A stretch of 64,000 nucleotides of DNA from Lytechinus pictus (Eukaryota), in assembly GCF_037042905.1 (NCBI RefSeq), contig NC_087250.1, positions 12,960,001-13,024,000 of the forward strand. The letters run 5' to 3'. The position numbers and the translations under genes were made by a program. The notes beneath the pieces are model-generated. The model ran no database searches and had not been told where the DNA came from. It was given only the letters and a program-made list of their open reading frames with translations. Positions 7,384-41,087 of this stretch are shown here, one piece after another; position 1 is the first letter of the stretch; the number at the start of each line of letters is the position of its first letter.

Positions 7384-7386
<3 letters not shown>

Positions 7387-7487
7387 TCAACATGATAACA
7401 ATTAGTATAACATCTTAGCAAGACAGCAACTGTGATCATTTCAAATTTTCTATGTACGTAGGCCCCCCCCCCCCCGAAAAAAAGGCT

Positions 7488-7690: not shown

Positions 7691-8352
7691 ATAAAGTTTA
7701 TTGTAGAAATAGCAGAAAATAAGTAAAATGATAATGGTGGGGGTTTTAGGGAATCCATCAAAGATTTAAAAAGCTATTAGAATTTTACATTTCAACGGTG
7801 ACGTCATTTGCAAGCAGTTTTTCCCACATATGGTGTAATAAAAAATATCAATGAAATGTCAATTTCTTAAAAAAAAATTAAAATGGCCTTTATTGTACCT
7901 TAAGTATATCAACATACAAATCATTTCACATCCGCACCTGAAAGATTATTTTTAGCAATCATGAACCACTGATTAAAATATTGAAAAGTATACATTTTGG
8001 TGCATAAAATACGGGGCAGCTGCTAGTATATGACGTCACAGATCAAAAACTAAAACTTCTAATAACTTTCTTAATCTTTGATGGGCTTTCCGCAAACCTT
8101 CACCTTCTGCTAATTTAACAGTAAAACATTTGTCAGGGTGAATTTCCTCTTCAAAACAGGTCGATAGAATGATACCTAAGAAACACCTATAAATTAAATC
8201 CCTGATTCGCTACACATTTCAATATTCATGCGGTAACCGTTACCATAGAAACTAGGTTAGGAACCCGACATCCACTTGGACTAGGTGCAATGAGGTATTG
8301 CTCTGAAAAACTGAACACTAGTTGCTATTATTATATCATTTACATGAAACTA

Positions 8353-9731: not shown

Positions 9732-10170
9732 TATATACGTATCATATCAATATCTATTCGGATCCATTATGATGTTGAAAAACGAAAAATTGCTTTTATT
9801 ACAGAACGTTTTGTTATTTTGCTGTTATCCAAGTTATGCCAGTGGTTAAAACAATACCGAACTTGTCTATTTCGGTGTGTTAATGGTAGCGCACATTGGT
9901 CTTTACATTAAAATTTGTTGGTTATGTATGGGATGAAGTGCTGTAATACGAACTGGCCAAGATAAATACTTTCTCAATCACTAATTGAAATCATTTTGGC
10001 ATGAAAATCGTATCAACGATAAAGTATAGACCTAAAATGATGACAAAAAATCCATATAATATCTAATTTGTTCATAATACTCATTTCGTCGAGAGGAGTC
10101 CATTCAAGTTCAATAACTATGACTGATAATTAGCCGAAAAGGCTGTTTTTTCCTTGTTGATGTCATGATC

Positions 10171-10516
10171 TTTACCTCTGCCATTATTACCTCTGCCATT
10201 TTTACCTCTGCCATTTTTACCTCTGCCATATTTACCTCTGCCATTTTTACCTCTGCCATTTTTACCTCTGCAATTATTACCTCTGCCATTTTTACCTCTG
10301 CCATTTTTACCTCTGCAATTTTTACCTCTGCCATTATTACCTCTGCCATTTTTTACCTCTGCCATTTTTACCTCTGCCATTATTACCTCTGCCATTTTTA
10401 CCTCTGCCATTTTTACCTCTGCAATTGTTACCTCTGCCATTATTACCTCTGCCATTTTTACCTCTGCCATTTTTACCTCTGCCATTATTACCTCTGCCAT
10501 TTTTACCCGGCACCGT
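10171..10516 (-). repeat. 15-bp tandem array (ATTTTTACCTCTGCC)n ending in CACCG
   Basis: About 22 units, directly visible; the source of the spurious MAEVK, GRGKN and FTSAI ORFs. Confidence 0.9.
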
Positions 10517-11335
10517 TGCCCAGGGGGCACTTGACGAGTGGATACCAGTCTAATGCCATTCCGTCTAATAACCTACTAAGACTAAGTGTTAAATTGTGCC
10601 AAATAAATGAAAATGTAATGGATTTAGACCAACTGGTTATGAAACGAAATGGTCAGAGACGAAATGGTATTTAGACGAAGTGATGATTGGACCAAATGGT
10701 TAATGGGCCAAATGATTGTAAGAAGAAATGTTGATGGACGTAATGGCATCAGACTAAATGAAATTAGACCATGTGGTGAGTGGACTAGTTGGCAGTAGAC
10801 GAATTGACAATTTACCACCCCGAGCACCCCGGCCTACTTCACAGGGCCACGCGGTCTCTCGATATCAACTTTCACCTACCTTTTAATCATTTTTATCTAT
10901 ATGTAATAGACATGAAATTTAATATCTAGCCTTTCACCATACAAAAATGTATTGTGTTTGCTTTGATTAAAAAATGCGTTTAAGTGCTACTGTGAACCTA
11001 GTCTGTTATGTATCGGTATCCTAATAAAAACATCCCGTTCAACGGTACACTTATTGATTGCTTTTTTTAGTGCGTAATTGATTTTTGACTAAATATCTTG
11101 CTTAAAATCTGGCCCATTTTCCTCTATTTACAGTTGAAAAATATTACTCTCATGCATGACTCTCGCAAAGCAGATGTTACACTCAAATCCACGATCATCT
11201 AAATTTAGTAAGTATCAATCTTCTTTTAATTAAGTGCTTCTTGTCAAACAAGTGAACGAAAAGAGATAGGCCTTCTATTAATCAAGTAATAATTTTGAAA
11301 TGGGTTGATTGACACTTGAGAATCAATCTCGAAAG

Positions 11336-14400: not shown

Positions 14401-15857
14401 AAAAGTGAATAGGCCTAGAATATCAAACGAATGGGTACAAATACATTTTTCTTCTTGTAATTAGGATTAGATCCTGCTGGTCCTCTGTTCGAGAATGAGG
14501 AAGCTCCATGTAGGCTGAGTAAAGACGATGCTGGGTTTGTGGATGTGATACACACCGACGGTGACAAAATTATTCTTGGAGGCGCCGGATTGATGCAAGA
14601 GGTAACATCATACAACAATGAACTTAGTGGTGAAATTGTAGTTGGTCACTAAATGTCATATGCCTTGCAACGTTTACTCACTTAATCAGGTCGCGGCGCG
14701 GCTATCACATTTTGAGTAGCCTACTTTTGTGGAAACGCGTTCGCGTTTTACGCACCGTGACGAGATTACGTGAGTAAACGTTGCAAGCCTTGTCAAAGTC
14801 TTTTTTATTTTATTTTTTTTTTTACCGAAAAGTGCTACCGGAAAGTGGTAAAAGGCCGTAACCAGTTGTGAATATTTTTGCCAGTCCCGAAGAGGTTTTC
14901 CACGTAAAACTCAATTCATTCACAAATTTTCAATGTATCATTTGTCTAAATTAACAGTACAATAATGCCATCGTGATAAGCTTAGTCCAGACGCTGGCCC
15001 TTCGATAATTTTCCCTACACTCACTGCGCTCCATCTACTGAACGCATTTCTTCCTCACTGCACTTACCATGCATCCTTACCCACCGTGATCGCGCGATCC
15101 CCAAATTTACACCAGGCGGGCCAGCATCTGGACTAGATCAGATTTGGTCCATCACTTAGGACCGGACATGATGACTCATGCCCCCCCCCCCCCTCATGAA
15201 AAGGAGATCGTGGGTTGGATCCACGACGCGATCGAAGCATATCAAAGACTTTAAATATGGGACCTTCTGCCTTCTTGCTAGGCGCTCAGCATTTACAATG
15301 GAGAATAATTACATGCTATGTTATGCAAGGCCCACTGCAGGGAAGAACAGCTTGAAGTTGAAGTGGCTACCCTTGCATGCCTGGGTAAATAAGAGTTTTT
15401 ATTATCATTAAACAATTTTTTTTTGCAAAAAAAAAAACCCAACCTGCTGCGGCTATGGATTTTAACTACATGGATTCTTTGATCATATTACTGGTTTTGT
15501 TTCTTCTACAAAGTTTTTATATATTTCAAATAAGAAACATTTATAGAATGTAATTTGGAAATGTATATCGATCCTTCTTTAAAAAATTTGCAGTGCGGGC
15601 ACCATGACTGGTATCCCTTCGGCGGGAAGGACCAACCAGGATGCCCAACTTTTGACGTCGCTTGCGACCACTCGAAAGCCGTCGAATATTTCATTGACAG
15701 CGTGAAAGGCGTCAAAACCTTCCTGGGCGAAAAATTTGCCAATACCGTCAATGATTTGCTCAACCGTCCAGCCAAGTGCTTCATCGATGGGAATTGCCCG
15801 GAAATGGGTTACCCTGATCACGACGACGCCGCCATCGAGGGCCACGACTTCATGTAA
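11426..15857 (+). CDS. Secreted pancreatic-lipase-family enzyme (PNLIPRP/PLA1-like), about 331 aa; exons 11426-11489, 12075-12223, 12777-12914, 13444-13687, 14465-14601, 15594-15857
   Basis: All six exons have AG/GT boundaries and compatible phases (996 nt in total). Motifs: signal peptide [22 protein letters not shown], oxyanion CHGW, NVILVDW, nucleophile GHSLG, ITGLDPAGP (catalytic Asp), [33 protein letters not shown] (catalytic His). Confidence 0.93.
12517..12634 (-). mobile_element. tRNA-derived SINE, 5' part, in a lipase intron
   Basis: The minus strand reads GAGGTGCCGTGGCCGAGTAGTCTAAGG (A box) ... GGTTCAATCCC (B box) ... GCCCTTGAGCAAGGCA. Confidence 0.7.
13042..13199. mobile_element. 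PIF/Harbinger-type MITE with CAG TSD; near-identical copy at about 26672-26828
   Basis: GGGGGCGTTTCATGAAAG..GATGAAACACTCCC is flanked by CAG on both sides. The second copy matches over its length. Confidence 0.75.
15205..15410 (+). mobile_element. Degenerate SINE; 3' tail related to 39967-40100
   Basis: Both loci share GGCCC..GGGA(A)GAACAG..GAAG(T/C)GGCT..CCTGGGTAAATA followed by (ATT)n-like tails. Confidence 0.5.
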
Positions 15858-22774: not shown

Positions 22775-24034
22775 GGATATAAATACATGTATGAATAAGA
22801 AAACAAAACATAATTAAATACATAACATGTACATGGATAGTGAGTCCTGGCCCGCCTAAGATATGCTGTCCTTATAATCTCAGCATGCTCGAGGTATCTG
22901 AACTCAAAGTCCTACGTATTTGATTCTAGATATGAACTAATGTTAGTCAATCATTCCTGGATCCTACCTAACCTACCTGAAAATGAATATCTCTTTTTGC
23001 TGTCTCAATTTCTCTGTTTTCTTGTCATTCTCTTTTTTTTTCCGGTTATTTCTTTTTGGCTTCTTTATAATTCTCCCCTTCTGGTTATCCTCCTCATCAT
23101 TTGCTCTTCCTCACTTTCCTAAATATGAGAAATTGTATGTACATATAAGCAGGACAGTCAACCAGTGTAAAGCTATGATATGACTTTGTCCACTCTTTGC
23201 TCTTTCATCTATGGTGAAATTAGGCTTGGTGATCCTAGTCTTTTTACTCCTCATCTCGTGGGCCAATGATACATTCCAACACTAATATCTTGCCCAAATT
23301 ATTGATTAATATATTTTTTGTTTACTTTTCCACCAAATTCGTTTTGAAATCGAAATCCATTTTTCTACTTAGCCAATATAGGACCTAAAAATGCTTGAAA
23401 TTTGTAATGTTGACATGGTTGAGATGTCTATTGTATACGGAAATCATAAATCAATTTGTTGATGTTTTCGTCAAAATTGAGGCACTTAAAGATTATTTTT
23501 GCATGTTCATAGTGCATGCTGTGTGATCATCAACACATCATTTTTTTTCCAGCAAACAAATTACATTATGAAAATGATACATGGTATATACTTTATCCCC
23601 GTCGCCTTATACGCTTACAACATGGAAAAGTCGTCCTCATTTCACTTCGCATAATTTCACAAGTTTGAACCTTACACTTTTGCAGTTATTTGGTAAATAA
23701 CCTAGGCGACCTTCTCAGATGTGACAGCCTGATTGTCTACTTTGCACTCGTTACCTAGTTGGTGTATGTATTGCAGTAGAGACGATTATCCGGGTGATAT
23801 GAAAAAAAAAATGATAATAAAGTTTCTTGATTACAATATAATTATGTTCTTTGACAGTTTGCAGATGAACGCTTTATTGGATGCTTCAGGGATAACGCAG
23901 GAGATCGGGTTTTACCGGTTCGTATTAGCCAGAAAATACTTAGGGCAAACAATTTCACAGTCAACAAATGCATTGATCAGTGCATTGTATTAAGCATGAC
24001 ATACGCCGGAGTGATTTACCAAGCTGAATGCTAC

Positions 24035-24520
24035 CGCATACATTCGTAATTCCGACGCTTCGTAATTCCGAAGGTTCGTATTTCCGAAGGTTCGTAATTC
24101 CGAAGGTTCGTAATTCCGAAGGATCGTTAATACGAAAACGAAATAAGGTTCGTAATTCCGAAGGTTCGTTAGTCCGAAATAGAATTGAGGTTCGTAATTC
24201 CGAAGATTCGTTAATCCGAAAACAAAATAAGGTTCGTTACGAAATTACGAACGTTCGGAACATCGAACTTTATTTTGTTTTCGGATTAAAGCACCTTCGG
24301 AACAACGAACCTTATTTCTTTTTCGGATTAACGAACCTTCGAAACAACGAATCTTATTTTGTTTTCGGATTATCGAACCTTCGGAATAACGAACCGTCGG
24401 AATAACGCCACAAATGTTCGGATTAACGAACCCTTTTTCGTTTTCGGATTAACGAACATCGAGGTATAGGCAATTTACGTGGTTCGGAATTACGAATTTT
24501 CGGAAATACGAAGTGTAACC
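24035..24520. mobile_element. 486-bp MITE (Merlin-like, 8-bp TSD) inside the WSC exon
   Basis: Perfect TSD AATGCTAC (24027-24034, 24521-24528); inverted arrays of TTCGTAATTCCGAAGG; right end ..AAGTGTAACC. Confidence 0.88.
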
Positions 24521-25773
24521 AATGCTACTGTGGATACGCCATTACAGACTACGATCGCCACGGCAATCTGCCTCTAGATGACTGCAGAGTGTTCAGATGT
24601 CCTGGAAACCAGGATGAATATTGTGGTGGATATGATGCACTTCTTGTGTACAATAGTAAGTTAGTCAATACTCATTTTGTAATTGTTCTGCTCGTTAAAA
24701 CACCTTTACTATTAATATTATTGGTATGACTATCATTATTATTATTATTATTATCGCTAGTATTGTTAATATTATCATTATTATATCATCATTATTATTG
24801 TTTTTATTATTAGACCTATTATTATTATTACTTATTCTCTTAGGCAAATAAATCATAGAACAATTTAATAATTGGATGTATAAGTAGGGATAAAAGTTGA
24901 CTGTCCGAATCTATGGTGATTTCTTTTCAGTAACAGTGATGACGACATCACAAAAAACGTCTACGGAGTTATCATCCACTTCATCTGGCTCGTCTACTCT
25001 AAGAACACCTATTACAAATTCAACAGGTAACAAATGTACATGTAATAAAGGTGACCAACATGACTAAATGACATATGAATAGCTTTGTGCGGCGGGCCCA
25101 TGATCTTTGGCAGCAGCAACCCTAAATGAATGAAAAATTAAATGAAATTTAAATGAAACTTACACGATTTTTACCCTCTTTTGGTTTGTTTTGTCTATTA
25201 TCTATTTCTTGTTGTTTTTTGCAAGGAAATTATTCACACCTTGCCACTCTCTTCCCGGTGCCAAAAGAGATGGCGCCACAAAAATTAATGAATAGTGGGA
25301 AAATGAAGCATTAATATAAAGGAAAAGGAAGCAATATTGAGAAGGGTTATGTGATAAAGTACTAATTTTCGTGACTTTTGCAATAAGAACAAAAAAAAAA
25401 CCTTGAAAAATAAACCTGTGGCGTTCTTGATGAAAATAATAAAACCAGTTTGAAATAGGAAGTTCAATATTAAACCTGAATAACTTGATGTCAAATTTTT
25501 TTCAAGTTCATTTCGAATTTATCTTGAAATTTATCATGTCGATTTTAATTACACACATTCTTTTTAGACCCCCCCTTTCTTTGTTCATATGAATCTGGAA
25601 AAATTAATTATCTCACCCAACTATAAACAGTTATAAACCTATGATAGCTCACTTTGAACTCTATATTATTCAATTCAAATATCATTGTAGGTGCAGTATA
25701 AAGCATGACCAGTGGCAGCTTTCATTCAAATCAATATTCAAACTTTGACATGTGAATGCATTTTATCATTCAG

Positions 25774-26417
25774 ACATGCTACACGGGGGAGGAACTCCTC
25801 GACATTCACGGAATCGAACACGAAGCTAGTATCACGGAGTCCCAGTACGCAGCCCTGTGTCCATCCCTAGTCCAGCAGATCCTCTCCGGTTCCTGCAGCA
25901 GTGATGAACATAATGACCCAACTGATGCGATTACAAACGCCGAGAGTACGTGATATCAACAATTATAATTATAAAAACAAAAGATATTATTAAAATACTG
26001 TAGTACTGTCGATGATAATGATGATTACGATGATGATGACGATATTGATGACGATGGTGAAGATGATGACGATGATGTGATGATGACGATGATGATGAAG
26101 ATGGTGATAACGATGATGTTGATGATGATGATGATGATGATGATAATAATGATGATGATCAGTGCTAAAAGTAATAGTACTATCCGGTGTCTGCAACATT
26201 GATGAACACACCTTTCAACCTTGTCCTTATTGTGTGTTCTTTTTTAGTTTGGGGCTATGGTAACCTGGTCGTCCTCATCATCAGTCTCCTCGCTGTTTTC
26301 GGGGCTATTTTTGTTCCATGCATGTCCGGTTTCGTGTACGAGGCTGTTATTCAGACAATGATGGCGCTCGCCGTAGCAACGTTGACAGGGGATGCCTTGT
26401 TACATCTAATACCGCAG
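25774..26417 (+). CDS. Second LIV-1-type ZIP (SLC39A) paralog: PAL-motif ectodomain exon (25774-25945) and TM1-TM2 exon (26248-26417); the remainder is expected beyond the window
   Basis: TCYTGEELLDIHGI..ITESQYAALCPSLVQQILSGSC.. is the CPALLxQ-type motif. It splices in frame to IWGYGNLVVLIISLLAVFG..MALAVATLTGDALLHLIPQ. Confidence 0.88.
26010..26160. repeat. (GAT)n microsatellite, intronic
   Basis: Directly visible. Confidence 0.9.
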
Positions 26418-26451
26418 GTAACCATTCTCTCAATATAATGCAAAGGAGCTT

Positions 26452-26664
26452 GGGGGTGTTTCACAGAGATTTAAGTATGACTTAGATTCGCACTTAAATG
26501 TGTAGTTGCATGCGGTATAAAAGGCATGACCGCATTGGTCAGATCATGCCAAGAGGACGCGCACTACTGCGATTTCATCAATAAGATCGCACGTTGCATA
26601 TCATGCACGCGTCGGTATTTAGGTACGACTCTAAGTCATATTCAAATATTTTTGAAACACCCCC
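26452..26664. mobile_element. Harbinger-type MITE (relative at about 2045-2205), abutting a second MITE at 26672-26828
   Basis: GGGGGTGTTTCACAGAGATTT..TATGACTTAGA / TCTAAGTCATATTCAAATATTTTTGAAACACCCCC. Confidence 0.65.
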
Positions 26665-26995
26665 AGATCTGGGGGGCGTTTCATGAAAGGACTTGTCGGA
26701 CGTTTTATCCGACAAGTCCCATTTTATCCGACAGTTACCATAGGAACAGTGCCTCTCAGCCAATCAAAATCATGGAAAGATGTCAGATCTGACAACTTGT
26801 CGGATGAAAATATTGATGAAACGCTCCCCAGGTCCCTATTCACACTCTTCCCGGGGTGATACAAGGGATTGACCAATTCCTTTGGCGTGAATTGTGCATT
26901 ATTGTAGAGTGCATTGTGGCATCTGGAAACAACTGAGCATCTTTTGATACACTTTCGCATCCTACTCTTTGGAAAAATTTGTGATGCCGAAAAAA

Positions 26996-27067
26996 TGTCC
27001 CTGCCGGGAATCGAACCCGGGCCCCCAGCTTTGAGCGCCGGTGCCTTAACCACTACACCACAGAGAT
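26996..27067 (-). tRNA. tRNA-like gene or pseudogene, 72 nt, anticodon UCA, followed by a T6 Pol III terminator
   Basis: Minus strand: ATCTCTG TG GTGT AGTGGTTA AGGC A CCGGC GCTCAAA GCTGG GGGC CCGGG TTCGATT CCCGG CAGGGAC A TTTTTT. Mismatches at pair 1:72 and in the D stem; C33 and G32 are non-canonical. Confidence 0.6.
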
Positions 27068-27194
27068 GGGTTAGTGGCTAGGGCGACCCCGATCCGATTA
27101 ACCGTCATATAGACAGATTTTCGACAACACCAATTATAATTTCCTTTGTCTATCTGACGGTCAATCGGATCGGGGTCGCCCTAGCCACTAACCT

Positions 27195-27258
27195 GTCTCT
27201 GTGGTCTAGTGGTTAAGGCACCGGCGTTCAAAGCTGGGGGCCCGGGTTCGATTCCCGG
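27195..27258 (+). tRNA. tRNA-like gene, anticodon UCA (27228-27230), truncated after the T arm by the LTR insertion
   Basis: GTCTCTG TG GTCT AGTGGTTA AGGC A CCGGC GTTCAAA GCTGG GGGC CCGGG TTCGATT CCCGG | TGTCACA. The D, anticodon and T stems all pair, and A and B boxes are intact. Confidence 0.65.
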
Positions 27259-28757
27259 TGTCACATTGAAAATGCATTTATTTTATTTTATGTATTTTCC
27301 TCAGCAAAGCTTGCTTATTTTATCTAAGTTTCACTCCTCAGCCAGGTTGCTAAGAGACAAGGAGTAGATCTTATGCAAGAGTGAGTAGGAGATGAAAGAA
27401 GTGTGTGTGAGATTCTTTTTGCTAGAATTGAATTGAGATGATTTGCATATCTATTGTGTGTTGTGTCCAGGGTGGTAGACTTGTATAGATCCCTTTTAGT
27501 GAGCTCAGTGAGCCTTTTCTTTTTAACAGCTGCTTAAGATACTTTTGGGGGAATTGTAAAATTGGGAGGAGACCCTAGTAGCTTTCCACTAGTTTTCTGG
27601 CATTGCATCTTGGAGACTTTGTGTAACACACACCTATGCAATTTTGGGGCAGTCGCCATTTTAGCTGCCATCTTGATAATTTTTGAATTTCAACTTTAAA
27701 CAGAAAAGCAGCCTTTCTTGTTTGATCTTGGCTGGAACTTTTAGATACCTGTATGAGGTCAGATTTAGCTGGATTTATGCTGTTATTTTTATGCCTGTAT
27801 TGAAGAAGCCATCGATGGTTCTAAGATCGGGATATATTCCAAGACCGGATAATTTCCAGGATCGGCACATTTCCCAAGACCGGGTCGCTTTGAAGACTGG
27901 TGAATTGTTTTAAGCTGAACATTATAAAGTGCTGACTCTGAAGGTTTTCGGTCAACATGTCACCTGACAGATAAGTTGTAAATAGCAGTGAGAGAGAAAG
28001 CAGGAGACGTTTCGTTAAATTTGAAACTAGCTTTCTAAATACCAGGAAGTCTTGCAAATTGACATTTCAGAAAATAGACATTGATTATGAAGATGACCGA
28101 ACATGAACAGTTTGATAGTGAGAAGAGTTTATTCGAATTTGAATCCGTGTAAGATATGATGTCGATTAACAGAGTTTTGAGCTAGAATTTAGGTGCATAA
28201 TTTTTGTAAGCTCAAGTTCAGGAGTTAGAAGGATTTTGAAATGTAATCACAAAAATTTTGTGATAAGAGATACAAAGTGGTGAGAATTGAATTCTATGAC
28301 GGTGGATTAATGCAGGATCCTTTCATAGGAATTTTTGGTAGTCGTTATTGTGAAAACAAAATGAAACAAAGTTAAAGGTTCAATTGATATTTTTGGAGGT
28401 AATTTTGCAGGTGAAAATGTAATACACTGAACGTTGAAGTTGGTGATTAGATCAGTGCAGGATCTCTTCAGTTATATTGGAGTTAGAGACAGATCGAGAG
28501 TTTAATGTTATAGCTTGGATCAATGCAGGATCCTTTGATTGTAAACTTGTGAATTAAGAGTACTTTTCAGAATACTTTATCATTTAGAGGTGTTACAGTT
28601 TTATTTCCCTTTTAAAATTCATACGTTGGACAATATTGAACTTCGAAGAGAGATGTTTTGATATTGGAGTTTTGTATACTGAAAAAAAAATTGTAAATTG
28701 TGATTTGGTACACATTGAGTTTTACTTGAATTTTATTTAAGGGCCGCCCATGTGACA
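27259..28757 (+). repeat. 5' LTR (1499 bp)
   Basis: Ends are TGTCACA...TGTGACA (7-bp inverted repeat). The first 279 bp recur at 63410-63688, and the PBS follows. Confidence 0.93.
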
Positions 28758-28761
28758 TTTC

Positions 28762-28777
28762 TGGGGGCTTGTCCGGG
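28762..28777 (+). promoter_or_regulatory. Primer-binding site complementary to the tRNA-Pro 3' end
   Basis: TGGGGGCTTGTCCGGG versus the canonical Pro PBS TGGGGGCTCGTCCGGG; 4 nt after the LTR end. Confidence 0.88.
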
Positions 28778-28989
28778 TGAGGTTTTTCTTAGGTAATTTA
28801 TAAGCCCTCTCGCAGTCACATGGGTATATTGATTAGAAATTAAGAAACAAAACAACTCAAGACAATAACAATGGAGTTATTTCTTTAATGCAGATGTTTG
28901 TAAATATATATGTGTAAATAGTAATGTACATTTGACCTCATTTGGGTGAAGTAGGTTTTTGCAAATTGATAGAGACCCTATTTTCAAAC

Positions 28990-30021
28990 ATGGATTTAGC
29001 AAGTCTTATGGCAGCTAGTAAAGAGTTTGGGTTAACTGGTGAGGCTCTTAAAATTTTTGTATCAGAGGAACAGAAAAAGCAAAGAGATGAGAGAGCTGAG
29101 TTGTTGGAGTTAAAGAAACAAGAAAAAGAAACGGCAGAAATACAGCTAGAAATAGAGCGTGAAAATAATGTCAAAGGTGAATCAAAATCTGTAGGCCAGA
29201 AAGCCCGCACTCCCACACTACCACCATTTCATGAGGACAAAGATAATATTGATGCTTACTTGCAGCGATTTGAGCGTTATGCAGAAACCCAAAATTGGCC
29301 GCGCACTGATTGGGCAATTAATCTAAGCGCTTTGCTCACAGGAAAAGCTCTTGATGTTCATTCTAGATTAACCAGTGACGAAGCTAAAGATTATAAGACT
29401 TTGAAAACTGCTCTTTTGAAAGCTTTTCAACTTACCTCAGAAGGATTTCGTTCAAAGTTTTATACAGGTAAACCAGTTAATGGGGAAACCGCATCACAAT
29501 ATTCAAACAGATTAGAGAACTATCTTAACAGATGGATTGAACTCTCAGGCGTCAAGCATGATTTTGATGACCTAAAGGATCTTCTTCTTCGAGAGCATTT
29601 CATCAACGGATGCCATCGTGACTTGTCAATCTTCCTACGAGAACGACAGCCAAAGACTACAAAGGATGCCATGAAATCCACAGAGCAATACCTAGACGCA
29701 CGAGGAGGTGTATTCAGAGCACCACCGCCACAGAGGAACATCCCTACAGGACAAACACAGCGAATCAATACAAGACATGAAGGTAAAACAAATACCCCTC
29801 AAATACATTCTAAGTCATTCCCAAAGACATGCTACAACTGTCATCAAGAAGGACACATTTCTCGTAACTGTCCAAAACAATCACAAAAACCACAAATGAC
29901 CAAGACTTGTTTTATCTGTCACAGGCCAGGACACTTTGCTAACTCATGTCCTTTCTCTCCAGTTAAATCTGCAGGATTCGTGATCCCGGAAGAACCAGAG
30001 GAATCAGAGGACAGACCTTAA
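28990..30021 (+). CDS. gag: Gag (Gmr1-type capsid with SCAN-related C-terminal region and two CCHC zinc knuckles)
   Basis: ..LPPFHEDKDNIDAYLQRFERYA..W..LSALLTGKA..LLREHFINGC..FLRERQPKT..; CYNCHQEGHISRNC and CFICHRPGHFANSC. Confidence 0.9.
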   Translation: MDLASLMAASKEFGLTGEALKIFVSEEQKKQRDERAELLELKKQEKETAEIQLEIERENNVKGESKSVGQKARTPTLPPFHEDKDNIDAYLQRFERYAETQNWPRTDWAINLSALLTGKALDVHSRLTSDEAKDYKTLKTALLKAFQLTSEGFRSKFYTGKPVNGETASQYSNRLENYLNRWIELSGVKHDFDDLKDLLLREHFINGCHRDLSIFLRERQPKTTKDAMKSTEQYLDARGGVFRAPPPQRNIPTGQTQRINTRHEGKTNTPQIHSKSFPKTCYNCHQEGHISRNCPKQSQKPQMTKTCFICHRPGHFANSCPFSPVKSAGFVIPEEPEESEDRP

Positions 30022-30034
30022 CCGGAAGCTGAAC

Positions 30035-30543
30035 CCCGGGGGGGGGGGCACTCAGTATATAATGCATAGTGGGTATGTGCCGCGGAGGGGACCCCCATTT
30101 TCACACTCAAATTTTCGTTCCGAGGCATAGCATTTTTGTCTTATCGAGACAAAAAACAAAGAAAGCCGCTCCAAGGCATAGCACTTTGTTCTTATCGAGA
30201 AAAAAAAAAAAGAAATCCGCTCCAAAGCTTCGCATATTTTTCGTTACGCCGTTCCGGTCGCATTGATCTGCTGCAATTTTGGTGAAAAGCGGCCGCCGAG
30301 CGCTGTCCGACCATCGGAGGCCGCGTATAGCTGCATCATGCACGCATGCCCGTTCCATAGGGGTACATACGCACGTACTCGCACGCTGGCGATCCGTTCC
30401 AAGGACCCCCGTTTTCACAAAATTGTAGTTCCGAAGCCCGTTCCCAGGACCCTCCTTTTTACAATAAGCCCGCTCCAAGGCCCCCGTTTTTTGTCTCGCC
30501 CGCGGCACACCCCTACCACTTTTTTGGTCGAGTGCCCCCCCCG
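30035..30543. mobile_element. 509-bp non-autonomous DNA element (CCCGGGGG..GCACTC terminus) inserted between gag and protease
   Basis: TIRs CGGGGGGGGGGGCACTC / GAGTGCCCCCCCCG; perfect 8-bp TSD AGCTGAAC (30027-30034, 30544-30551). Confidence 0.85.
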
Positions 30544-33500
30544 AGCTGAACCTACTTATTTACAATCTGATAACCCTGGGTCTATCTCCCATAACCCATG
30601 TCAATGTCTCTCTTGTAATAGTACACAGGTCAGACTTGAAGCTTCATGCATAATGGTCAGAATGCCACACGATACCCCTCACCTTGAATCTATGACAGAT
30701 CATGGCAAATTTGGTTATGATCACAGTTTGCCCCTAATGAGTGCAGCATGCTCAAATGAAAATTTTGTCAAACGTATGCCTGTTACCAAGGGACTTGTAA
30801 ATAACAATGTCATTTCCGTTCTCAGAGACAGCGGATCCAGTGGTATCATCATCAAACAAGATCTTGTAAAACAAAGTCAAATGACAAGTGAAGTTTGTAC
30901 TTGTTTGCTAATTGATCAATCAATTAGAACTCTCCCCATTGCAGTGATCGATATCAATACACCTTTCTATGTAGGTAAAGTTCGTGCTGTATGTATGAAA
31001 ACTCCTCTCTATGACCTTATCTTAGGAAATATTCCAGGTGTGAGACCAGCAGAGCAACCAGATCCACAATGGACACTACCAGAGACCGTCATTCCAGTCT
31101 GCGCAGTACAGACAAGAGCACAAGTCCAACGAGAAGGCAAGCCATTTCGTCCACTCAAGACTCCACATCCAATGGAAGAAGTCGTCACCCCATCAGTTCT
31201 CAAGGAAACACAACAGAAGGATGAGACTCTACATCGACTGAGAGAACTGGCTGATGCTGGAACAGAGAAAGTAAGTCGTCATCGTAATAAGTCTTCCTTC
31301 TTCTATAAAGACGGGATTCTATACAGATCCTTCCTTTCTTCCAATGATTCAGATACAGTAATCACACAAGTTGTTGTTCCAAAACAATACCGTAAGCAAG
31401 TAATGCAGACAGCTCATGAGAATCTTCTAGGAGGCCACCAAGGAGCAAAGAAAACCACATAAAAAATTCTTACCAATTTCTTCTGGCCCGGTATGAATTC
31501 TGACATTATCCGATATGTCTGATCATGTGACATATGTCAACGCACTTTAGCTAGAGGCAGAGTAACAAAGGTCCCATTAGGAAAGATGCCAATCATTGAA
31601 GTCCCCTTTGAACGTATAGCTATAGATATCGTTGGACCAATACATCCCATGACAGAAAACAAAAATCGTTACATTCTCACAATTGTTGATTATGCCACTA
31701 GGTATCCTGAGGCGATTCCACTCCCTAGCATCGAAACAGAGAGGGTAAGCGGAGGCTCTTGTAAGCGTCTAAACCAGGGTCGGGATTCCAAAGGAAATGC
31801 TGACAGATCAAGGAACACAATTTACATCGGATCTCATGAAAGAAGTAAGCAAGCTACTGTCTATACGCCACTTCACGACCTCGCCATATCACCCAGCTGC
31901 AAACGGTCTTGTTGAAAGATTCAATGGAAGCTTAAAGCAGATGCTGAAACGTATGTGTGCCGAGAACCCAAAGGACTGGGACAGGTATATCACCCCACTT
32001 CTATTTGCAGTCAGAGAGGCACCTCAGGAAAGCATGGGGTTTTCCCCATTTGAACTTCTCTACGGAAGGAAAGTTCGTGGACCCCTCGACATCCTCAAAG
32101 AACTCTGGACAGGTGAAGATGAGACAGCCGAAACCAAGTCTACCTACCACTATATCTTGGATCTTCGGAACAGAATCGACGAGACTTGTCGCAACGCTCA
32201 TACTCAACTACAGAAATCTTCAGAGAGATACGCAAGGTACTACAATCAGAAAGCCAAACACAGAGAATTCCAAGTTGGAGACAGAGTACTCCTTCTACTG
32301 CCAACAGACCGAAACAAGCTTCTTCTGCAATGGAAGGGCCCTTTTGAAGTTGTCTCCAAAGTAAGCGTAACGGACTACAGAATCGATTTGAATGGTAAAC
32401 CAAAGGTATTCCACATAAATCTCCTAAAGAAATATCATGACAGAAATAACACATCTCCTTCTCTTTCAGGTACTGAGACAATTTGCTCCGCAGTGGTTGA
32501 ATGCGAGGATAATGCCGAAGATGAAGACACACCATCTCCAACCCAACTAACAAACAGATCTCTCTTGCAGCCATTTCTATTACAGGCTAAGGAATCACTT
32601 GCTGATGTTACCATTAATCCAGATCTTTCTCCCTCACAGAAAGAACAGGTCAATGCACTTCTCAACAACTACAAAGACGTCATGTCAGATCTGCCGAATC
32701 GCACATCACTTGGCGAACACAACATCTTACTCGGTGAAGTCGGTGATCACAAACAGTTAAAGAGTAAACCTTACCCTATTCCTCATTCTCTTAGGGACAC
32801 TTTCAGAGATGAAGTGAAGACCATGCTGTCTATGGGGGTTATAGAACCTTCAGATAGCCCCATAGCTTCCCCAATTGTCTTAGTCAAAAAGCCTGATGGT
32901 AGTAACCGTTTTTGCGTGGATTATCGGAAGCTCAACAAGGTCACTGTATTCGACGCTGAACCCATACCCGATCAAGATGAATTATTCACAAAAGTCGCAC
33001 ATGCCAAATACTTTACTAAGATAGACTTAAGTAAAGGCTATTGGCAAGTTCCTATGTCACACAAATCAAAACCACTAACTGCCTTTCTCACTCCTGATGG
33101 CCTTTTTCAGTTTACAGTCATGCCCTTCGGCTTGGTGAATGCGCCTGCCTCCTTCAGCCGAATGATGAGAAGACTACTAAAAGGACTTGATGGAGCTGTA
33201 AACTATATAGACGATATCCTGATACATTCAACCACGTGGGATCAGCATCTTGCCACACTCACCGAGTTGCTTAGCAGGCTACGAGCAGCAAAACTGACAG
33301 CCAGACCCAGTAAATGCTTCGTGGGACAATCGAAGGTCGAATTTCTGGGACACGTAATCGAAGATGGAACAGTAAGTCCTCGACCAGAGAAACTCAAGGC
33401 ATCCAAGAAATCAGCAGACCTCAAACCAAACGAGAACTTCGATCATTTCTCGGCATGACCAACTACTATAGGAAGTTCATACCCAACTATTCTGCCATTT

Positions 33501-33741
33501 CCGCTCCACTGACAGAAAGGACTCGGAAAGATGAACCAAATCAAATCAGATGGGAAACCAATCAGGAACAGGCCTTCAAAACACTCAAAGACAAACTAAC
33601 CAATCCACCCATCCTTCATCTACCAGACTTGTCAACAGATTTCATACTCAGAACGGATGCATCAAATGTTGGAATTGGAGCAGTCCTGCTTCAGACACAC
33701 GAAGAGGAACGATTCCCAGTAGCATATGCAAGTCGTAAGTT
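30544..33741 (+). pseudogene. pol: pol, 5' part: protease - integrase - reverse transcriptase - start of RNase H, with stops and frameshifts
   Basis: Protease VLRDSGSS; integrase HHCC (AHENLLGGHQG..SCDICQR), IAIDIVGP, LTDQGTQF, NGLVERFN, WKGPF; RT SPIVLVKKPDGSNRFCVDYRKLN, YIDDIL; RNase H LRTDASNVGIGAVL..YASRK. Stops at about 31460 and 31520; frameshifts near 31750 and 33400. Confidence 0.93.
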
Positions 33742-35967
33742 CCCAGGGAACAATACAGCGTTGGACCAACGTTGGATCAACGTTGGGAATTTTTTTCCCA
33801 ACGTTGCCTCAACGTTGGCAGGCCAAGGTTGCATCATCGATAGAAGTGCACGCGCATACATCGTCAGACCAACAACATTTCCAACGTCAGTTCAACGTTG
33901 TCCACCATCAATGCTCCAACGTTGGTATAATGTCGGCTGAGTCATCAATAACAGCGTTGCTGCAACGTTGATGGGCAACGTTGAAGCAGCGATGGACGTG
34001 CATTTGCATACATCGTCAGTCCAACTATGTTAACAACGTTGGTTCAACGCTGTCCAGCAACAATGCTCCAACGTTGTCTGGCAACATTGCTCCAACATTG
34101 TTACAACGTTGTCACAACGTTGCTCCAACATTGCTCCAACGTTATTCTAACGTATGGCAGTAATTAACAAAACATTAATTGGTCTCAAGGTGAAGACCAC
34201 CATTACAACTCTACACTCTAATCTTTATCATCATGTCTTATCCTATCCTAAAATCCTACATCCTAATCCTATATCCTATTCCTATCATCCTACACATATC
34301 CACTGTATCCTGTCATTGACTCCTATATATAGAGCAACTTTGCTATACTTGGCAGAATACAGTTAATATCATTTTCCACACTTAACCTTGAATATTTAAC
34401 TTAGAATAATATGTTTTGATTATAAATGATATGGTAATGGAGCCACATACTTTTCTGAAACTTTTCATGGTGGAAATATTGAATAAACATAAATACTCTA
34501 ATTATTATAGCAATATTACCTAAAATTTTGGTCATTTACTGATGTAATGAATATTCATGAGTGCATAATCATTGTCCAGATGAGGCAGGTATGGCAGCGT
34601 TGGTCCAAAGTTGGTCCAACGTTGGGTGACGTTGATCCAACGTTGGTATAATGTTGGTCCAATGTTGATTGTTGATGGAAAGTTGATTCAACTTTAGTCC
34701 AATGTTAGTCCAACGTTGGCGTAAACGTTGATTCAATGTTTGTCTAATATCGGTTAAATGCTGTTGTAACGTTGATTCTTTGTTGGTCTGATTTTAAACA
34801 AATCCAACGATGCGCCATCTCCATCAAACAGTTTTCAACACTGTGCCATCATCATCTGTAACCTGTTCATGATTCTATCAAAAAACATTACAACTATTAT
34901 TACAGCTATTCATTTCTTTTCATTCTTTCTGTTACAAGTCTCTTCACATAATTAAGAGGAATCAAGAGAATTACGTGTGATATTTATTGAGGCCTTTGTA
35001 GCATTCAAACTTTTTTGACATCCTCTTTTTCTCAAACAAGACTAATACCAAAAAACATATGCATATGTAATAAGAATTAAGATGTATTACATTTTCTTGC
35101 GAGTTGCAATCTCTGTTTCTGTCTACAATTGTTTAATGACTCGGTATATGCAATGCCAATTGCAACGTCAGTAATCAGCACAAAAACTCACATGTGTAAT
35201 TGCAGTCTCTCAGTATTTACAAAATCTAAAAAGGAGGTCGCGTAACTTGGCCTCACTCAGAGTAACGTAGCTACTGCCTACTGTAACTAAAGAGTGCCTC
35301 TTTTTGATTAAGATAAAAGTCAACTGATATCTCAATATGCATGGCCATGGCATAGTCTCGCTCGTGCCATAACTATTAAATGATATTTCAGCGTCAAGTG
35401 TAGCATGCCTCACATAGCAACTACAGGTTTGACTGCAGTTGGAAAACACTCGGTCCAGGCTAGGCCAGGCAGGACCGACCAAGTCAATTCAAGGCAGCGT
35501 ATAATAAATAAGGCAGGGATGCCAGGTAGCAAGTCATTGGGTGATTTCAAGTACGATGTACGGTGTTGAGAGCGTGAAAGGGCTGCTGAACTGAGCTCCA
35601 ACACCAAGCGTAATATTATTTTTCATTGAAATGTATTAAAACTCTAATGATTTGCTCTCATCTTAAATGTAAAAGATAATTTTACGGAGATGGTTCGTCG
35701 TGTTCGCCCCCTGTTCGTGAGCTACAGTTCATCAACACCAACACTGAACTTTAAATCACGATTCTCCCAATCCATGGGGGCCGGTGTTGCTGAATGGGGA
35801 AATTGCTTGTAGATCATCAACACCATGCAGCCACAGTGCAGTGTTGGGTTCAGCAGATGACAATCAACACCAGCCTTCAACACAAACTGCCGGAAATACA
35901 CCATATTTTCCGAGGTCAATCTCAACACCAGCCTGAGTCAAGTACGGTGTTGTCACAACACCAACAC

Positions 35968-36587
35968 TAACCCAGGGAGCTCCGGCCCGCTCAGCGGGCC
36001 GGAGCCCAGGGGCTTACCGTGTAATTCACCATGGCCACGGTAGTAGCGTGAAGTATGGTCTAAATAATTATCCGAATAAATAGTTAAAACAGAAATTAAG
36101 CACTTACCATGATTATATGGATGAAGGTCTAACGAGTGGCAGCTTCCTGACATCGAGGCACAGACTGGAACCTCAAAAAACGAAAAGTTCTGTCGCGGTA
36201 GCTCTCCTTCTTTCAGAATTCATAGCAAAATGGCCGTTCGAGACCGGTACCGAGGGTGTAGAGCGCATGCGCGAATTTGACAAAGTCTATATGCGCTCGT
36301 GCTATTAGCCTCGGTCTCAATCGGCCATTTTGTTTTGAATTCTGAAAGAGGAGAGCTACCGCGACAGAACTTTTCGTTTTTTGAGGTTCCAGTCTGTGCC
36401 TCGATGTCAGGAAGCTGCCACTCGTTAGACCTTCATCCATATAATCGTGGTAAGTGCTTAACTTCTGTTTTAACTATTATTCGGATAATTGTTTAGACCA
36501 TACTTCACGCTACTACCGTGGGTATGGTGAATTACACGGTAAGCTCCTGCAAGGGCTCCGGCGGCCGGAGCTCCCTGGCCTGGGTTA
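35968..36587. mobile_element. 620-bp foldback element, Mutator-like (9-bp TSD)
   Basis: Near-perfect arms of about 280 bp, TAACCCAGG../..CCTGGGTTA; TSD CACCAACAC at 35959-35967 and 36588-36596. Confidence 0.88.
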
Positions 36588-39500
36588 CACCAACACCAGA
36601 TTTCAACACTGTACTTGAAAATCATCCAATGACTGTTGTCTTGCCCTTGGTATTGCATACTCGTTCCCACTCACACGTATTGCGAGGTTAGTATTAGTCA
36701 CTCACACAAGCTAATTACGAGGTTAGTTAGTATGTTATACTGTGCAGTGACTGGTGTTAAGTACTACTTTACTACTACTTCCCTTACAAAAAATTCCTGT
36801 AGTACTCTGTGATATGTACTGCAGGAAGTATCGCAGGAAAGTACTGCAGGAATTACGTGCACGTAATTTGGGACGGTACTACAGAAATGTACAACAGGAG
36901 TACAACAGGTCCGTGTCCTGTGATACTTCCTGTGGTAATAACCGCATAAGTATGGCAGGAAGTATGACAGGACACGATCACCACAACCGCTACAACCGCT
37001 ACAACCACGACCACACTACTATTAGTACTACAGGACAGTATCACAGGATAGTATCACAGGATAGTATCACATGATAGTATGACAGGACAGTATGACAGGA
37101 TAGTATGACAGGACAGTATGACAGGACAGTACTACAGGAATACCGCAGACCAGTATCACAGGGAAGTACTACAGAACAGTATCGCAGGACAGTACTACAG
37201 GAGTACCGCAGGCTTCTGGTACTGTGTCCTGTAGTACTGTCCTGTGATACTGGTCTGGTATTCCTGTAGTACTGTCCTGTGATACTGGTCTGGTATTCCT
37301 GTAGTACTGTCCTGTGATACTGGTCTGGTATTCCTGTAGTACTGTCCTGTGATACTGGTCTGGTATTCCTGTAGTACTGTCCTGTGATACTGGTCTGGTA
37401 TTCCTGTAGTACTGTCCTGTGATACTATCCTGTGGTGATAAATAGTATCACAGGACAGTATGACAGGACAGTACTTTAGGAATTCCGCAGACCAGTATCA
37501 CAGGAAAGTACTACAGAACAGTACTACAGGACAGTACTGCAGGAATACCAAGATACCTTACCGCAGGACAATTCCTGCAGTACTGTCCTGTGGTATTCCT
37601 GTGATACTGATCTTTGATATCTTCTGTGGCATTATTGGTCTCATCCTGCAGCCTTCTTGTGATACTTTACTGTGGTAATCCTGCAGGGGTATTCTTGTTG
37701 ATTTCCTGTGACAATCCTATGGTATTGTCCTGTAGTAGTCTGTGCGATTTTCTCACGACACCGTCCTGCACTGGTTTGTTAGGCGTAGTAGTTTGTAAGA
37801 ATTTCCTGTGATCCAGCACAACAACTTTGACATCTGGGCCCCGTTGCATAAAACTTTTGCCAGACTTATTTTTGCCATAGTTTTTCTATGGCAAAAACCT
37901 TAGTTTTTTGCCAGAGTTTCAAATTCGGTCAAAATTTCATGGCAAAAAAACTCTGGCAAACTTTTGCCAGAGTTTTTTAAGTTGCCAGAGTTTTTTAAGA
38001 CTGAATAAACTTGAACGAGGATGAACGCCGATATCAGCCGATATCGCGATCGGTATCTGCGGCTGCTGAAAAAATCATGGAGACTCCATAGAACGGTAAG
38101 CTTGATATTTTTTAAATGAAATGTGTTGATATTTGCTATTTTTATCATTATAAGTCGATTAATTAGTTGCAAAAATATCTGTGTATTGTTTTGAATCCGT
38201 GCTCGCACCGTGAAAGTGAGATTCACGATTTTTTTACACGTTTGAATCGTTCCATTTTTGTGTCGCAAGCGCCTGCGGGGTCTGCGTCTCGGCCATGTCT
38301 ATTGCCGCCGGAGCTTCGGCATGGTGATGTGACCGCGCTGGTCGCACTTGGTGCGCCAACAGCTGAAACCACCAACTGCATCGACACGTTTGGAAAGCTT
38401 ATTTATCGATTTATCGTATTTCTCTTGCTATGATCACACATTCTACATTATGATTAGTATCAGTAAATAAAATTTCATGTTGTTCAAATCAATTTTTCAT
38501 GTTAGAATTGAATTGAATGCAAAGCCAAAGTTGCAAACTTTGGACCACCGTCACTGTCGGTCGTTACCAAGTCAGACAAGTTGAATTGAAGTTGGTTAGA
38601 TTCTAGACCTACAACAACAGTTAGATCGAATTTTCAGATCTAACTTTAGGCATAGAATCAACATTCTTGATCTAAGTTAACTTTTTCTGAAGAAGTTGAG
38701 ACTTCAGTCAGTCAGTTTGAGGTCTCCACCGTGAGGCGTGAAGCCCCTGAGGCTGAGTGAGGTACATGTTCTATTATTAGTATTACGTAGGCCCTTAAAA
38801 AAGGTGCGTAGCTGTAGAGCTAGAGCTAGATTAATGGTTGGCGCATAGACTCTCTTGTACCAGGTGCAGATCTAGAGCCTGTGTCTTTACTTAGTACAGT
38901 ACTACAGGGCGCGATTGGCACTAGGGCCTACAGTGCAGTGCTGCGATCCAAAAATTTTGACAACTCTGAATGGTGGCTTTAATTTCTCCCTTAAAAATTT
39001 GAAATAAAATAGGGGGGGAGTCGTACCAATTGACCCCCTTTCCCTGGATCTGCTATAGGTGACCCCACATGAAATTGCGACATCATGATCATGAACAGTA
39101 CTTAGCGTAATGTGCCAAAAATTTTGAGGGGGCCTGACACTGACAATGGCGTAGGGGGCAAATCTTTTTAATAAAAACTGAGCAATCCAAAATTTTTACA
39201 TTTTTTTTAAATACAAAAAAAAAAAAAAAAACGAAATTTTTGTTATCCCCTTTATTTTGTTTTTGAAAATTTTAGAGGGTCCATAGTCTCTCCCCCCCCC
39301 AAAAAAAAAAAATGTACGCCAGTGAACGTGAATCTATACAGTGGCTAGAGATTAAAAATTGGTCTCAATTTAAAGCTTGTTATAATCCAACACTCTGTGC
39401 AATTTATTTCAATTAATTGAAATTAATGATCTGATGACCACTAAAGTAAAAATCTTGAAAATCCTTCATAAAAAAATTCTTGCAGAGAAACAAATCATAT

Positions 39501-41087
39501 ATATAATGTTATTTTGGGGCTGAATGGAGACTATGGGATTGTTGTATTGTTAGTATTTAACATGCATTACTATGTTTTTTAAGGGGCTAGAATTTTTATT
39601 TTGGTCTCAATTGCATATAACATCATTGATTATTTGTTTAAGATAAATAAAAAATGATTAAAAAATTGCAGTTTTGGAATTTGGATATTCTAAGTTCATA
39701 TAAATTTGCATATCTAAATTATGTTGAAGAAATGAACAAAATCCCTTTAGGTTATTTATCATCTGAAAGGGAATTTCAATGATCAATCCAAATATTTTTT
39801 TCCAGTTTGTACTGAGCTACTTTTTTTCTGTTAAGTTTGAATTACTGTAATAAGTTTAACAATTGGAATCAACCATCAAAATGACCTATCCTAGTAATGG
39901 TTTAATTCACCGGCACAAACATATTAGTATATTAGTAGGAACATATTAGTAGGAAGAAATTCCTTGAATGCTTTGAGCGCCTAGGCAGCCCAGCTAAAGC
40001 CGGGGTAATAATAATAGCAGGGCCCGCTGGGAGAACAGTTTTCGGAACTGAAGCGGCTTCCCTGGGTAAATATACCTGTATTATTATTATTATTATTATT
40101 CATTTGATAATTTATACTGAAAGTAATCTCAATGCAAATATTTGTGTGACTTTATCTAGTCTTAATTTGTGACTCTCTAATAGGATTATTTATTTTCTCA
40201 TTCAATATCTAACAGCTTAAATAGTTGAGGTATATACACTGGAGCAACTCAAGTGCATGTGTGACTTTTTGAGAAGAAACCACAAGGCTGTTGGTTAGCA
40301 ATCACCATGTAAAAGGGTAAGATATACAGCTTAATTTCAAATTAGCCAAAATTCTAATTGCTACCATTTTAAGTATTTATAGACAGGCTTATATTTTATG
40401 TTGGTAATCTCGATGCAAAGTTTCTCAAAGTGAAAAGAATATTTATGAAGAAGAAGTCATTACTGCCTGATAATGTCGAACATAAAGTAGTTATAAAATA
40501 CAATTTTTTAAAAAGGCTTCGTCTTCTTGAATAGAAAGAAAAAAATTGTTTCAGGCATATTTGAAATGAGTAAGAATCCTCATGTTGATTATTAAATTTA
40601 TACAACCCCCCCTCCCCCCCCAAAAAAAAAAATTAGAAAATGTACCTAATCTCACCTGGCTATGCTAGTGATTGTGTAGACCTGAATCAATAATAGTTAA
40701 GTTCATTTAATTACCTCTTGCAATTCTTTGAAAATTATTATTGATTTTGATTTTTTTTCTTTGATATGTCCATTGGAAATGATGAAATCTTATTTTCTTA
40801 CAATTACAAGTTTTGATTTAGATTTTCATGGAATAAAACTGAAAGAGTACAACACATCTTTCTTATAAATTCCTGATTTGAACTCTAGTTACATTAATAG
40901 ATTGCAATTTTAAATTTTGATAACTTACAAAGTAGATAAATAATATTAATTATATGCCATGAAATGAGATTTTTGTCAAATAAATTTAGACATTCTTGAC
41001 AAAGTGCAGAGTGTCTTTTCAATTAATATATAGCATATACCTATTTTATGATTTGTTTGTGTTTGCATTTTAAATAAAGGTTTGCAG

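Follow-up and report, generated by a model that had tools for sequence, protein, structure and literature searches.

The window analyzed here is a 64,000-nucleotide (nt) stretch of the genome of the sea urchin Lytechinus pictus (NCBI RefSeq assembly GCF_037042905.1, contig NC_087250.1, positions 12,960,001 to 13,024,000 of the forward strand), and its feature of interest is a pair of tRNA-like genes that lie back to back in an inverted repeat. A repeat search placed the two arms at 27004-27115 and 27147-27258, each 112 nt long, 95% complementary and separated by a 31-nt spacer. Direct counting gave six mismatches between the arms, five private to the left arm and one private to the right arm relative to the consensus of the repeat family to which both belong, which serves as the reference throughout. 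These are the dimensions that an earlier interpretation, made from the letters of this DNA and here called the sequence-only reading, had given for the palindrome. The evidence presented below makes it probable that the palindrome is the junction of two inverted, 5'-truncated units of a high-copy repeat family and that the tRNA-like module is a relic or passenger within it, not a working opal suppressor.

ARAGORN predicted two tRNAs with anticodon tca, at 26996-27067 (minus strand) and 27194-27266 (plus strand), that point outward, so both the TCA at the anticodon position of each copy and the outward orientation were seen as previously described. In Infernal scoring, one of the checks that the sequence-only reading had suggested, the Rfam tRNA model RF00005 aligned with the left copy over its full length (26996-27067, minus strand; 39.3 bits) and with the right copy over model positions 8-63 only (27202-27258, plus strand; 35.7 bits), both above the gathering score of 29 bits. 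Both copies also carry the G at position 32 that had been singled out as noncanonical. Position 32 of cytosolic tRNAs is almost always a pyrimidine. The predicted RNA fold of the 271-nt stretch 26996-27266 is a single long hairpin of −235.8 kcal/mol (z = −28.2), a value equaled by none of 200 shuffles and thus far outside chance.

The left copy, unit A (minus strand), and the right copy, unit B (plus strand), have different histories. The family homology of unit A outruns the arm and extends over 26962-27150, with 94.2% identity to the consensus in 191 columns; it consists of a 34-bp downstream part, a run of six T residues (T6) at 26990-26995, the tRNA-like gene, and an 83-bp upstream part at 27068-27150. 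The T6 run lies directly behind the gene, as had been noted. Within the tRNA, unit A differs from the consensus at four positions (nt 1 G>A, nt 12 C>G, nt 33 T>C, and nt 68 A>G). The nt 68 change is a common variant of the family, and the other three are private to this copy: the first removes the first acceptor pair (A1/C72 mismatch), the second removes a D-stem pair, and the third replaces U33 with C33. The resulting decay is visible in the score, 39.3 bits compared with 60.9 bits for canonical copies of the family. Unit B is represented by its 5' part at 27147-27258 (112 nt, 99.1% identity to the consensus), comprising 48 bp of family sequence upstream of the tRNA (27147-27194) and tRNA nt 1 to 64 (27195-27258). 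The letters after 27258 belong to a long terminal repeat (LTR), and the 3' acceptor strand of this copy is missing from the window. The earlier claim of a canonical cloverleaf in each arm therefore stands for the left copy, the only complete cloverleaf in the window, albeit with broken pairs and C33, and fails for the right one. At the head-to-head junction (27147-27150), four bases fit both units, so the two consensus alignments overlap in a microhomology.

The interruption of unit B is explained by a retrotransposon. Position 27259 is the first base of a repeated element, and at least 14 other genomic copies, 96 to 98% identical, begin at the same base. The 5' LTR of this Ty3/gypsy-like element occupies 27259-28757 (plus strand), starting with TGTCACAT and ending with ATGTGACA, and is followed by gag and pol frames at 28942-33940 (plus strand) with Pfam matches to zf-CCHC (1.8e-09), RVT_1 (1.4e-33), RT_RNaseH_2 (1.5e-22), Integrase_H2C2, and rve_3. 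These frames encode a zinc knuckle/gag region, integrase, reverse transcriptase, and RNase H, with the integrase ahead of the reverse transcriptase, an order that we take to be that of the Gmr1-like elements of deuterostomes. A search for LTRs around the gypsy-like frames within 24000-40000 found none; the 3' LTR lies at 63410 and beyond. Its first 279 bp (63410-63688, plus strand) are 98.9% identical to 27259-27537, an insertion of ∼1.4 kb breaks it at 63689, and the remainder lies outside the window (C6:13025127 onward; L118:1-949), where LTR positions 549-1499 match L118:1-949 at 98.7%. The LTRs are thus 1,499 bp long and 98.7 to 98.9% identical to each other. The whole insertion is ∼39 kb long, the element extending to C6:13026348, and the distance between the LTRs is ∼35 kb, compared with ∼5 kb for the gag and pol frames; therefore, much other DNA must have been inserted into the retrotransposon later.

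Directly behind the 3' LTR, the rest of the unit follows at 99.2% identity to the family: tRNA nt 60 to 72, T6, and the downstream region (L118:950-1101). The five bases CCCGG that precede the 5' LTR (27254-27258, plus strand) recur after the 3' LTR (L118:950-954) as a target-site duplication. Because the LTR starts at 27259, family sequence resumes after the 3' LTR, and CCCGG is present on both sides, we conclude that unit B was once a complete canonical unit and was split inside the T arm by the LTR retrotransposon, whose insertion duplicated 5 bp. On its right side, the inverted repeat stops at the retrotransposon insertion site, which is not the end of the palindrome.

The two units belong to a very large family. 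We searched the 812-Mb assembly (G+C content, ∼31 to 42%) with a 33-nt probe spanning the anticodon arm, in which the seven loop positions were left free and at most one mismatch was allowed; it matched 2,235 sites genome-wide, and the reversed control matched none. A BLAST search with 26990-27270 gave 90 scored matches among 510 candidates. The copy-number check by BLASTN that had been proposed earlier therefore reveals a very high-copy family. In the 30 loci that were retrieved, ARAGORN called 65 tRNAs, all tca and nearly identical, although overlapping loci count some genes twice; 51 entries were resolved among the retrieved loci, two of which duplicate a pair on C14. The full unit is 406 bp long and contains one 72-nt tRNA-like gene followed by T6; only parts of it are present in the window. 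Units are repeated head to tail with a period of 405 to 406 bp and 99% matches (Tandem Repeats Finder), the constant-period arrangement of a satellite, and one array on C2 has at least 38 successive units, again with a period of 406 bp. On C1, 57 copies were distributed over 38 loci as 24 solo copies, 11 pairs, 1 triple, and 2 quadruples. The family is thus composed of long head-to-tail arrays together with hundreds of short dispersed insertions. Full-text literature searches turned up no account of the family and, for echinoderms, none of any high-copy tRNA-like repeat with a UCA anticodon; Repbase, Dfam, or GtRNAdb may list it. The accessible text of two urchin genome papers gives total tRNA counts only (1,799 and 3,393).

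In canonical copies, the tRNA-like module is a clean 72-nt cloverleaf with a 7/4/5/5 fold and a 4-nt variable loop that scores 56 to 60.9 bits with RF00005, has T6 directly 3', and carries U33, A37, and a T loop. Two acceptor variants occur, ending ...CAGAGACA and ...CAGGGACA. Of the first 100 copies listed, 92 have the loop GTTCAAA and 98 have the anticodon TCA; G32 was present in all family copies seen. Putative A- and B-box-like sequences are present in the module, and together with the cloverleaf and the T run they agree with the earlier description of these copies as putative tRNA-like genes of RNA polymerase III (Pol III) type. The rest of the 406-bp unit reached no Rfam threshold and gave only weak, subthreshold hairpin matches.

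The ARAGORN label "SeC" given to these copies depends on the anticodon alone. The genome has a true tRNA-Sec of 86 nt (C2:54020026-54020111; 76.9 bits with RF01852) and a second, equal match on C25; these are the only two loci above the 47-bit cutoff, and neither is in the repeat family. tRNA-Sec shares the UCA anticodon but has a long variable arm, an extended acceptor/T fold, and a length of ∼86 to 90 nt, whereas the RNA of the repeat family would be 72 nt long with a 4-nt variable loop. Identity with tRNA-Sec was therefore rejected, as the sequence-only reading had argued. That reading had also seen a resemblance to tRNA-Glu, and in a sample composed of tRNAs sharing the T arm plus one Lys cluster, the nearest genuine tRNA was indeed tRNA-Glu-CTC (57 to 58 of 72 nt identical). 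The acceptor stem of the family is unlike those of the Glu and Gly tRNAs of this genome. In the search for a parent, the Rfam tRNA search of the genome returned only the Lys cluster, a T-arm probe returned Glu and Gly-GCC genes, and a Gly-TCC-type T-arm probe of the genome found only Gly-GCC fragments. The Lys cluster (C4:9700711-9735957; loci L033 to L060) is itself dense, with dozens of tRNA-Lys genes (TTT and CTT), many of them with point variants, in ∼35 kb. In 27 dispersed copies of the family, the loop is GTTCCAA, with the glycine-type anticodon TCC, instead of GTTCAAA; all are solitary save one head-to-head pair on C16, and TCC variants also occur in a few reads from other species labels. 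The TCC copies may represent the ancestral state. We suppose that the family descends from a Glu/Gly-like tRNA and acquired its UCA anticodon by chance along the way.

To define the anatomy of the dispersed copies, we mapped the ends of 11 loci from the first BLAST search and of an unselected set of 20 solo loci on C1 against a concatenated consensus. On the 3' side, copies terminate at one of three AT-rich sites of the unit, with (TA)n or (CA)n(TA)n next to it. In the C1 set, 18 of 20 loci end at these canonical 3' sites, with a TA-rich tract after 16 of the 18. By contrast with these fixed 3' ends, the 14 defined 5' ends all differ in position, with two that fall within the tRNA and none at tRNA nt 1, and the conserved sequence ahead of the tRNA reaches at least 225 nt. 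An inverted family fragment flanks 6 of the 14 defined 5' ends. Inverted neighbors within 2 kb of each other were head to head (−/+) in eight of eight cases and never tail to tail (+/−) (two-sided binomial P = 0.008). The arms at the 11 head-to-head junctions break anywhere between nt +6 of the tRNA and positions more than 200 nt ahead of it; six junctions have overlaps of 1 to 5 bp and the remainder have small gaps. All 10 visible outer ends at these loci are on canonical 3' sites, and the nt 68 A/G variant is concordant between the two arms in all seven pairs.

Some breakpoints recur. Breaks 25 to 27 nt ahead of the tRNA affect one arm in 4 of the 11 junctions (L094, L026, L116, and L002), and −150 and −108/−110 each recur as breakpoints in two. 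On Pol III genes, TFIIIB sits at about the distance of the first group. Recurrent breakpoints could reflect hot spots or shared ancestry.

These junctions bear on the proposal of the sequence-only reading that the palindrome is a foldback element carrying Pol III tRNA-like genes in its arms, which could yield a suppressor-like RNA, tRNA fragments, a hairpin RNA, or a mobile TFIIIC insulator; such an element would move as a unit. Head-to-head orientation is the rule in the family, the predicted hairpin is very stable, and one palindromic form has been copied as a whole to two chromosomes, at L003 on C5 and L004 on C8, which share the same junction and are 92% identical over ∼550 bp between unrelated flanks. 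However, L003 and L004 are the only 2 of the 11 loci that share a junction; both breakpoints differ among the loci, which argues against a single element with defined ends, and palindromes are outnumbered by solo truncated copies and head-to-tail arrays. The constant termini and target duplications of a foldback transposon were not seen in the copies mapped, and no transposase or defined terminal sequence was found with them. As for a hairpin RNA, both genes point outward, and so nothing known would transcribe across the palindrome, nor would any promoter read through it. Neither copy at this locus would be expected to give a normal tRNA, the right gene being split and the left degraded. We therefore consider a discrete foldback element very unlikely; the palindrome is one site in a family of at least 2,235 copies.

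Some of this anatomy could also be accounted for by a known kind of retroelement, be it a tRNA-derived short interspersed element (SINE) or a miniature LTR retrotransposon of the Helenus type (TRIMp3) whose LTR-internal-LTR chains would resemble arrays. The dispersed copies, fixed at the 3' end, tailed by a simple repeat, and truncated to variable extents at the 5' end, resemble the products of target-primed reverse transcription, and many loci hold exactly two tRNAs 405 to 419 bp apart. According to the accessible text of the Helenus paper, moreover, that element inflates tRNA and "tRNA-Sup" predictions and forms tandem arrays in zebrafish (Kojima 2024, PMC10886601). In a tRNA-derived SINE, the tRNA head forms the 5' end and no Pol III terminator lies inside the element, but in the urchin unit tRNA nt 1 coincides with none of the 14 defined 5' ends, at least 225 nt of conserved sequence may precede the tRNA, and T6 lies directly behind it. 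With respect to Helenus, the urchin copies have no constant TG...CA ends, their ends vary, and no 4-bp duplications are readable; nor did a reading of the consensus, with no dedicated search, reveal an LTR-adjacent primer-binding site matching tRNA 3' ends or a polypurine tract. The accessible text also reports Helenus from six animal phyla, among which echinoderms are not named (PMC10886601). We regard a retroelement of either kind as unlikely.

The interpretation that we prefer, a junction of two truncated units, suggests a mechanism. Because the 3' end of the copies is constant and lies at a TA tract, their 5' truncation is random, the inverted partner also has its 3' end facing outward, the join shows microhomology, and unique flanks are not duplicated, we propose two-ended copying. 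At a break, the (TA)n ends on both sides would prime synthesis into the AT-rich 3' site of a donor unit or of its transcript. The template could be DNA, in which case the process would be a two-ended synthesis-dependent repair from a donor unit, or RNA, in which case it would be a twin-primed reverse transcription of a multimeric transcript. The two unfinished nascent ends would then be joined by microhomology, and the pair in the window would be one such product, in which the retrotransposon later split unit B and unit A gained its three private tRNA substitutions. We rejected a plain fold-back duplication of a resident copy, which would double the unique flanks too; such duplication was not seen.

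We take the tRNA-like module to be a relic or passenger, and it may serve as the Pol III/TFIIIC-binding part of a selfish or neutral repeat. The family could, on the other hand, be a genuine, expressed family of opal-suppressor (UGA-reading) tRNA genes, of which the window would contain two. The family loop has the features expected of a functional suppressor, with a 7-nt loop that holds the UCA anticodon, U33, and a purine at position 37; canonical copies reach 60.9 bits, with an intact T loop and T6 terminator; and the anticodon hardly varies. An RNA sequencing (RNA-seq) run and two contig sets show the same letters in the tRNA, TCA among them, and these letters dominate the reads of two species labels, with no differences of ≥10% within positions 2127-2198 at a depth of ≥100. 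Against these points, G32 is present in all copies, and the acceptor stem would make charging of such a tRNA doubtful. The 2,235 copies compare with 124 genome matches for a Glu/Gly-type T-arm probe and are an order of magnitude above normal isoacceptor families. Truncation is random and indifferent to the tRNA, cutting inside it in 2 of the 20 C1 solo copies, and the whole 406-bp unit is equally homogeneous. At the locus itself, unit B is split, and unit A has lost an acceptor pair, a D-stem pair, and U33, which is replaced by C33.

The RNA data consist of one paired-end cDNA library of poly(A) type, from a related or identical species, that is blind to 72-nt Pol III products. In this run, 1,731 of 12.9 million reads fell on the repeat, with equal mate orientations and with the spacer covered like the tRNA. 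The tRNA was not enriched and no pile-ups of read ends were seen, the coverage being low, even, and two stranded, in a library unable to show a 72-nt Pol III RNA. In the sequence and in this library, we found no evidence to suggest a discrete RNA product or its use in translation. Taken together, these observations make a working suppressor family extremely unlikely. A broader possibility is that more than 2,000 putatively transcription-competent, UGA-reading cloverleaf genes have been kept because their RNA is used, whether for stage-specific readthrough (e.g., in eggs or embryos), as an uncharged regulator, or as a source of small RNA, with two-ended copying into (TA)n serving to spread Pol III/TFIIIC sites; we judge this highly improbable, although the near-constant anticodon, the intact cloverleaf, and the weak deficit of private substitutions described below are compatible with it.

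Several observations nevertheless weigh against a relic or passenger module and against the proposed copying. The module is structurally perfect in most copies, and 98 of the first 100 listed retain TCA. Private substitutions, scored in 18 young solo copies, occupy 5 of 685 alignment cells in the tRNA outside the probe, compared with 70 of 4,057 in the flanks, a deficit (odds ratio, 0.42; Fisher P = 0.066) that hints at constraint on the tRNA and counts in favor of a suppressor gene. A 52-copy sample, biased to tRNA variants, showed no difference (π = 0.046 in the tRNA, compared with 0.044 to 0.059). The variable anticodon that the sequence-only reading had listed among the signs that would count against a functional tRNA-like element was not found either, so its list was borne out only in part. 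At the locus, the left outer end (∼26962) misses the canonical 3' sites and borders on unique DNA; therefore, the left copy also lost sequence in a further event. No target duplications were readable at the dispersed copies, whose flanks are (TA)n. Finally, the copying mechanism, whether from an RNA or a DNA template, is read from the anatomy of the copies.

Elsewhere in the window, a third, strongly 5'-truncated family fragment lies at 6860-6915 (minus strand; 56 bp). It corresponds to the last 53 positions of the downstream part of the unit (consensus positions 354 to 406; 89.3% identity), and its 3' side abuts a TA-rich tract (6830-6859) ending in (TA)n. We considered whether this fragment could be the lost outer end of the left arm and rejected the idea, since 22 positions of the unit would be unaccounted for and lipase exons of the host separate the two sites; the fragment is a truncated copy of the family in its own right. 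The exons, at 13432-13716 and 15534-15854 (plus strand), are pancreatic-lipase-like, and the latter fragment is 90% identical to a Lytechinus variegatus protein. A frame at 198-548 (plus strand) contains a motif that presumably resembles a ZIP zinc transporter. Long tracts of short tandem repeats occupy 7326-7765, 10120-10674, and 37000-37560, with a pentapeptide-like periodic reading frame at ∼10.1 to 10.7 kb and 13-nt and 35-nt repeats at ∼37.0 to 37.5 kb. The stretch 26452-26835 holds a very abundant, short element with inverted ends that resembles a miniature inverted-repeat transposable element (MITE), within an older element of ∼385 bp. Many copies of its core of ∼170 bp (26664-26836) are 99 to 100% identical, among 4,637 initial candidates. 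Two retrieved loci with the tRNA repeat (L027 and L028) also carry the MITE-like element nearby.

For annotation, the consequence is that programs predicting tRNAs will call thousands of "SeC" or "suppressor" genes in this urchin, probably also in related species, and that these calls should be recognized as one repeat family. For genome biology, a repeat that is at once a satellite and a set of dispersed pieces with a regular anatomy is informative on how satellites scatter through a genome; the 3' end at (TA)n, the variable 5' end, and the head-to-head partner point to a specific kind of copying at microsatellite breaks. Should the RNA prove to be made and charged, which we consider unlikely, it would be a rare case of a cognate stop-reading tRNA at very high gene dosage in an animal.

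Beyond tRNA-Sec, the family invites comparison with four known systems. The first is the twin priming of L1 elements, reportedly described by Ostertag and Kazazian in 2001. Like L1 twin priming or two-ended templated repair, the urchin copies combine an inverted 5' part, junction microhomology, variable 5' truncation, and a constant 3' end. They differ from twin-primed L1 in that both arms end at a canonical 3' site, each like a separate (TA)n-primed copy, and no reverse transcriptase partner was identified. With tRNA-derived SINEs, the family shares a tRNA-like module with A and B boxes, a high copy number, a simple-repeat 3' tail, and 5'-truncated copies; unlike SINEs, it has its tRNA in mid-unit, behind 125 to 225 nt of conserved sequence and ahead of T6, it has no copy that starts at nt 1, and it forms 406-bp arrays.

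Helenus resembles the family as a repeat bearing a tRNA-like Pol III promoter, present in hundreds to thousands of copies and in arrays, that inflates tRNA and "suppressor" calls (PMC10886601). In the accessible text of that paper, all tRNA-Sup-CTA predictions in two rust-fungus genera come from Helenus, and the element is described with two LTRs, a primer-binding site, a polypurine tract, and target duplications of 4 to 5 bp (Kojima 2024, PMC10886601). As far as its sequence was read, the urchin family is without these LTR and duplication features, its anticodon is TCA, and its cloverleaf is intact.

The tandem component of the family can be compared with arrays of tRNA genes, which are also known from Entamoeba, Xenopus, and zebrafish. 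In Arabidopsis, clusters of tRNA-Cys genes are built from 0.4-kb units, according to the accessible text of one report (PMC10701932). Such arrays, as described there, and the urchin arrays are alike in being head-to-tail repeats of a few hundred base pairs, each with one tRNA gene and its terminator. Where the described arrays encode tRNAs for sense codons, the urchin family has a stop-reading anticodon and G32, and its units are also scattered through the genome in truncated and inverted form.

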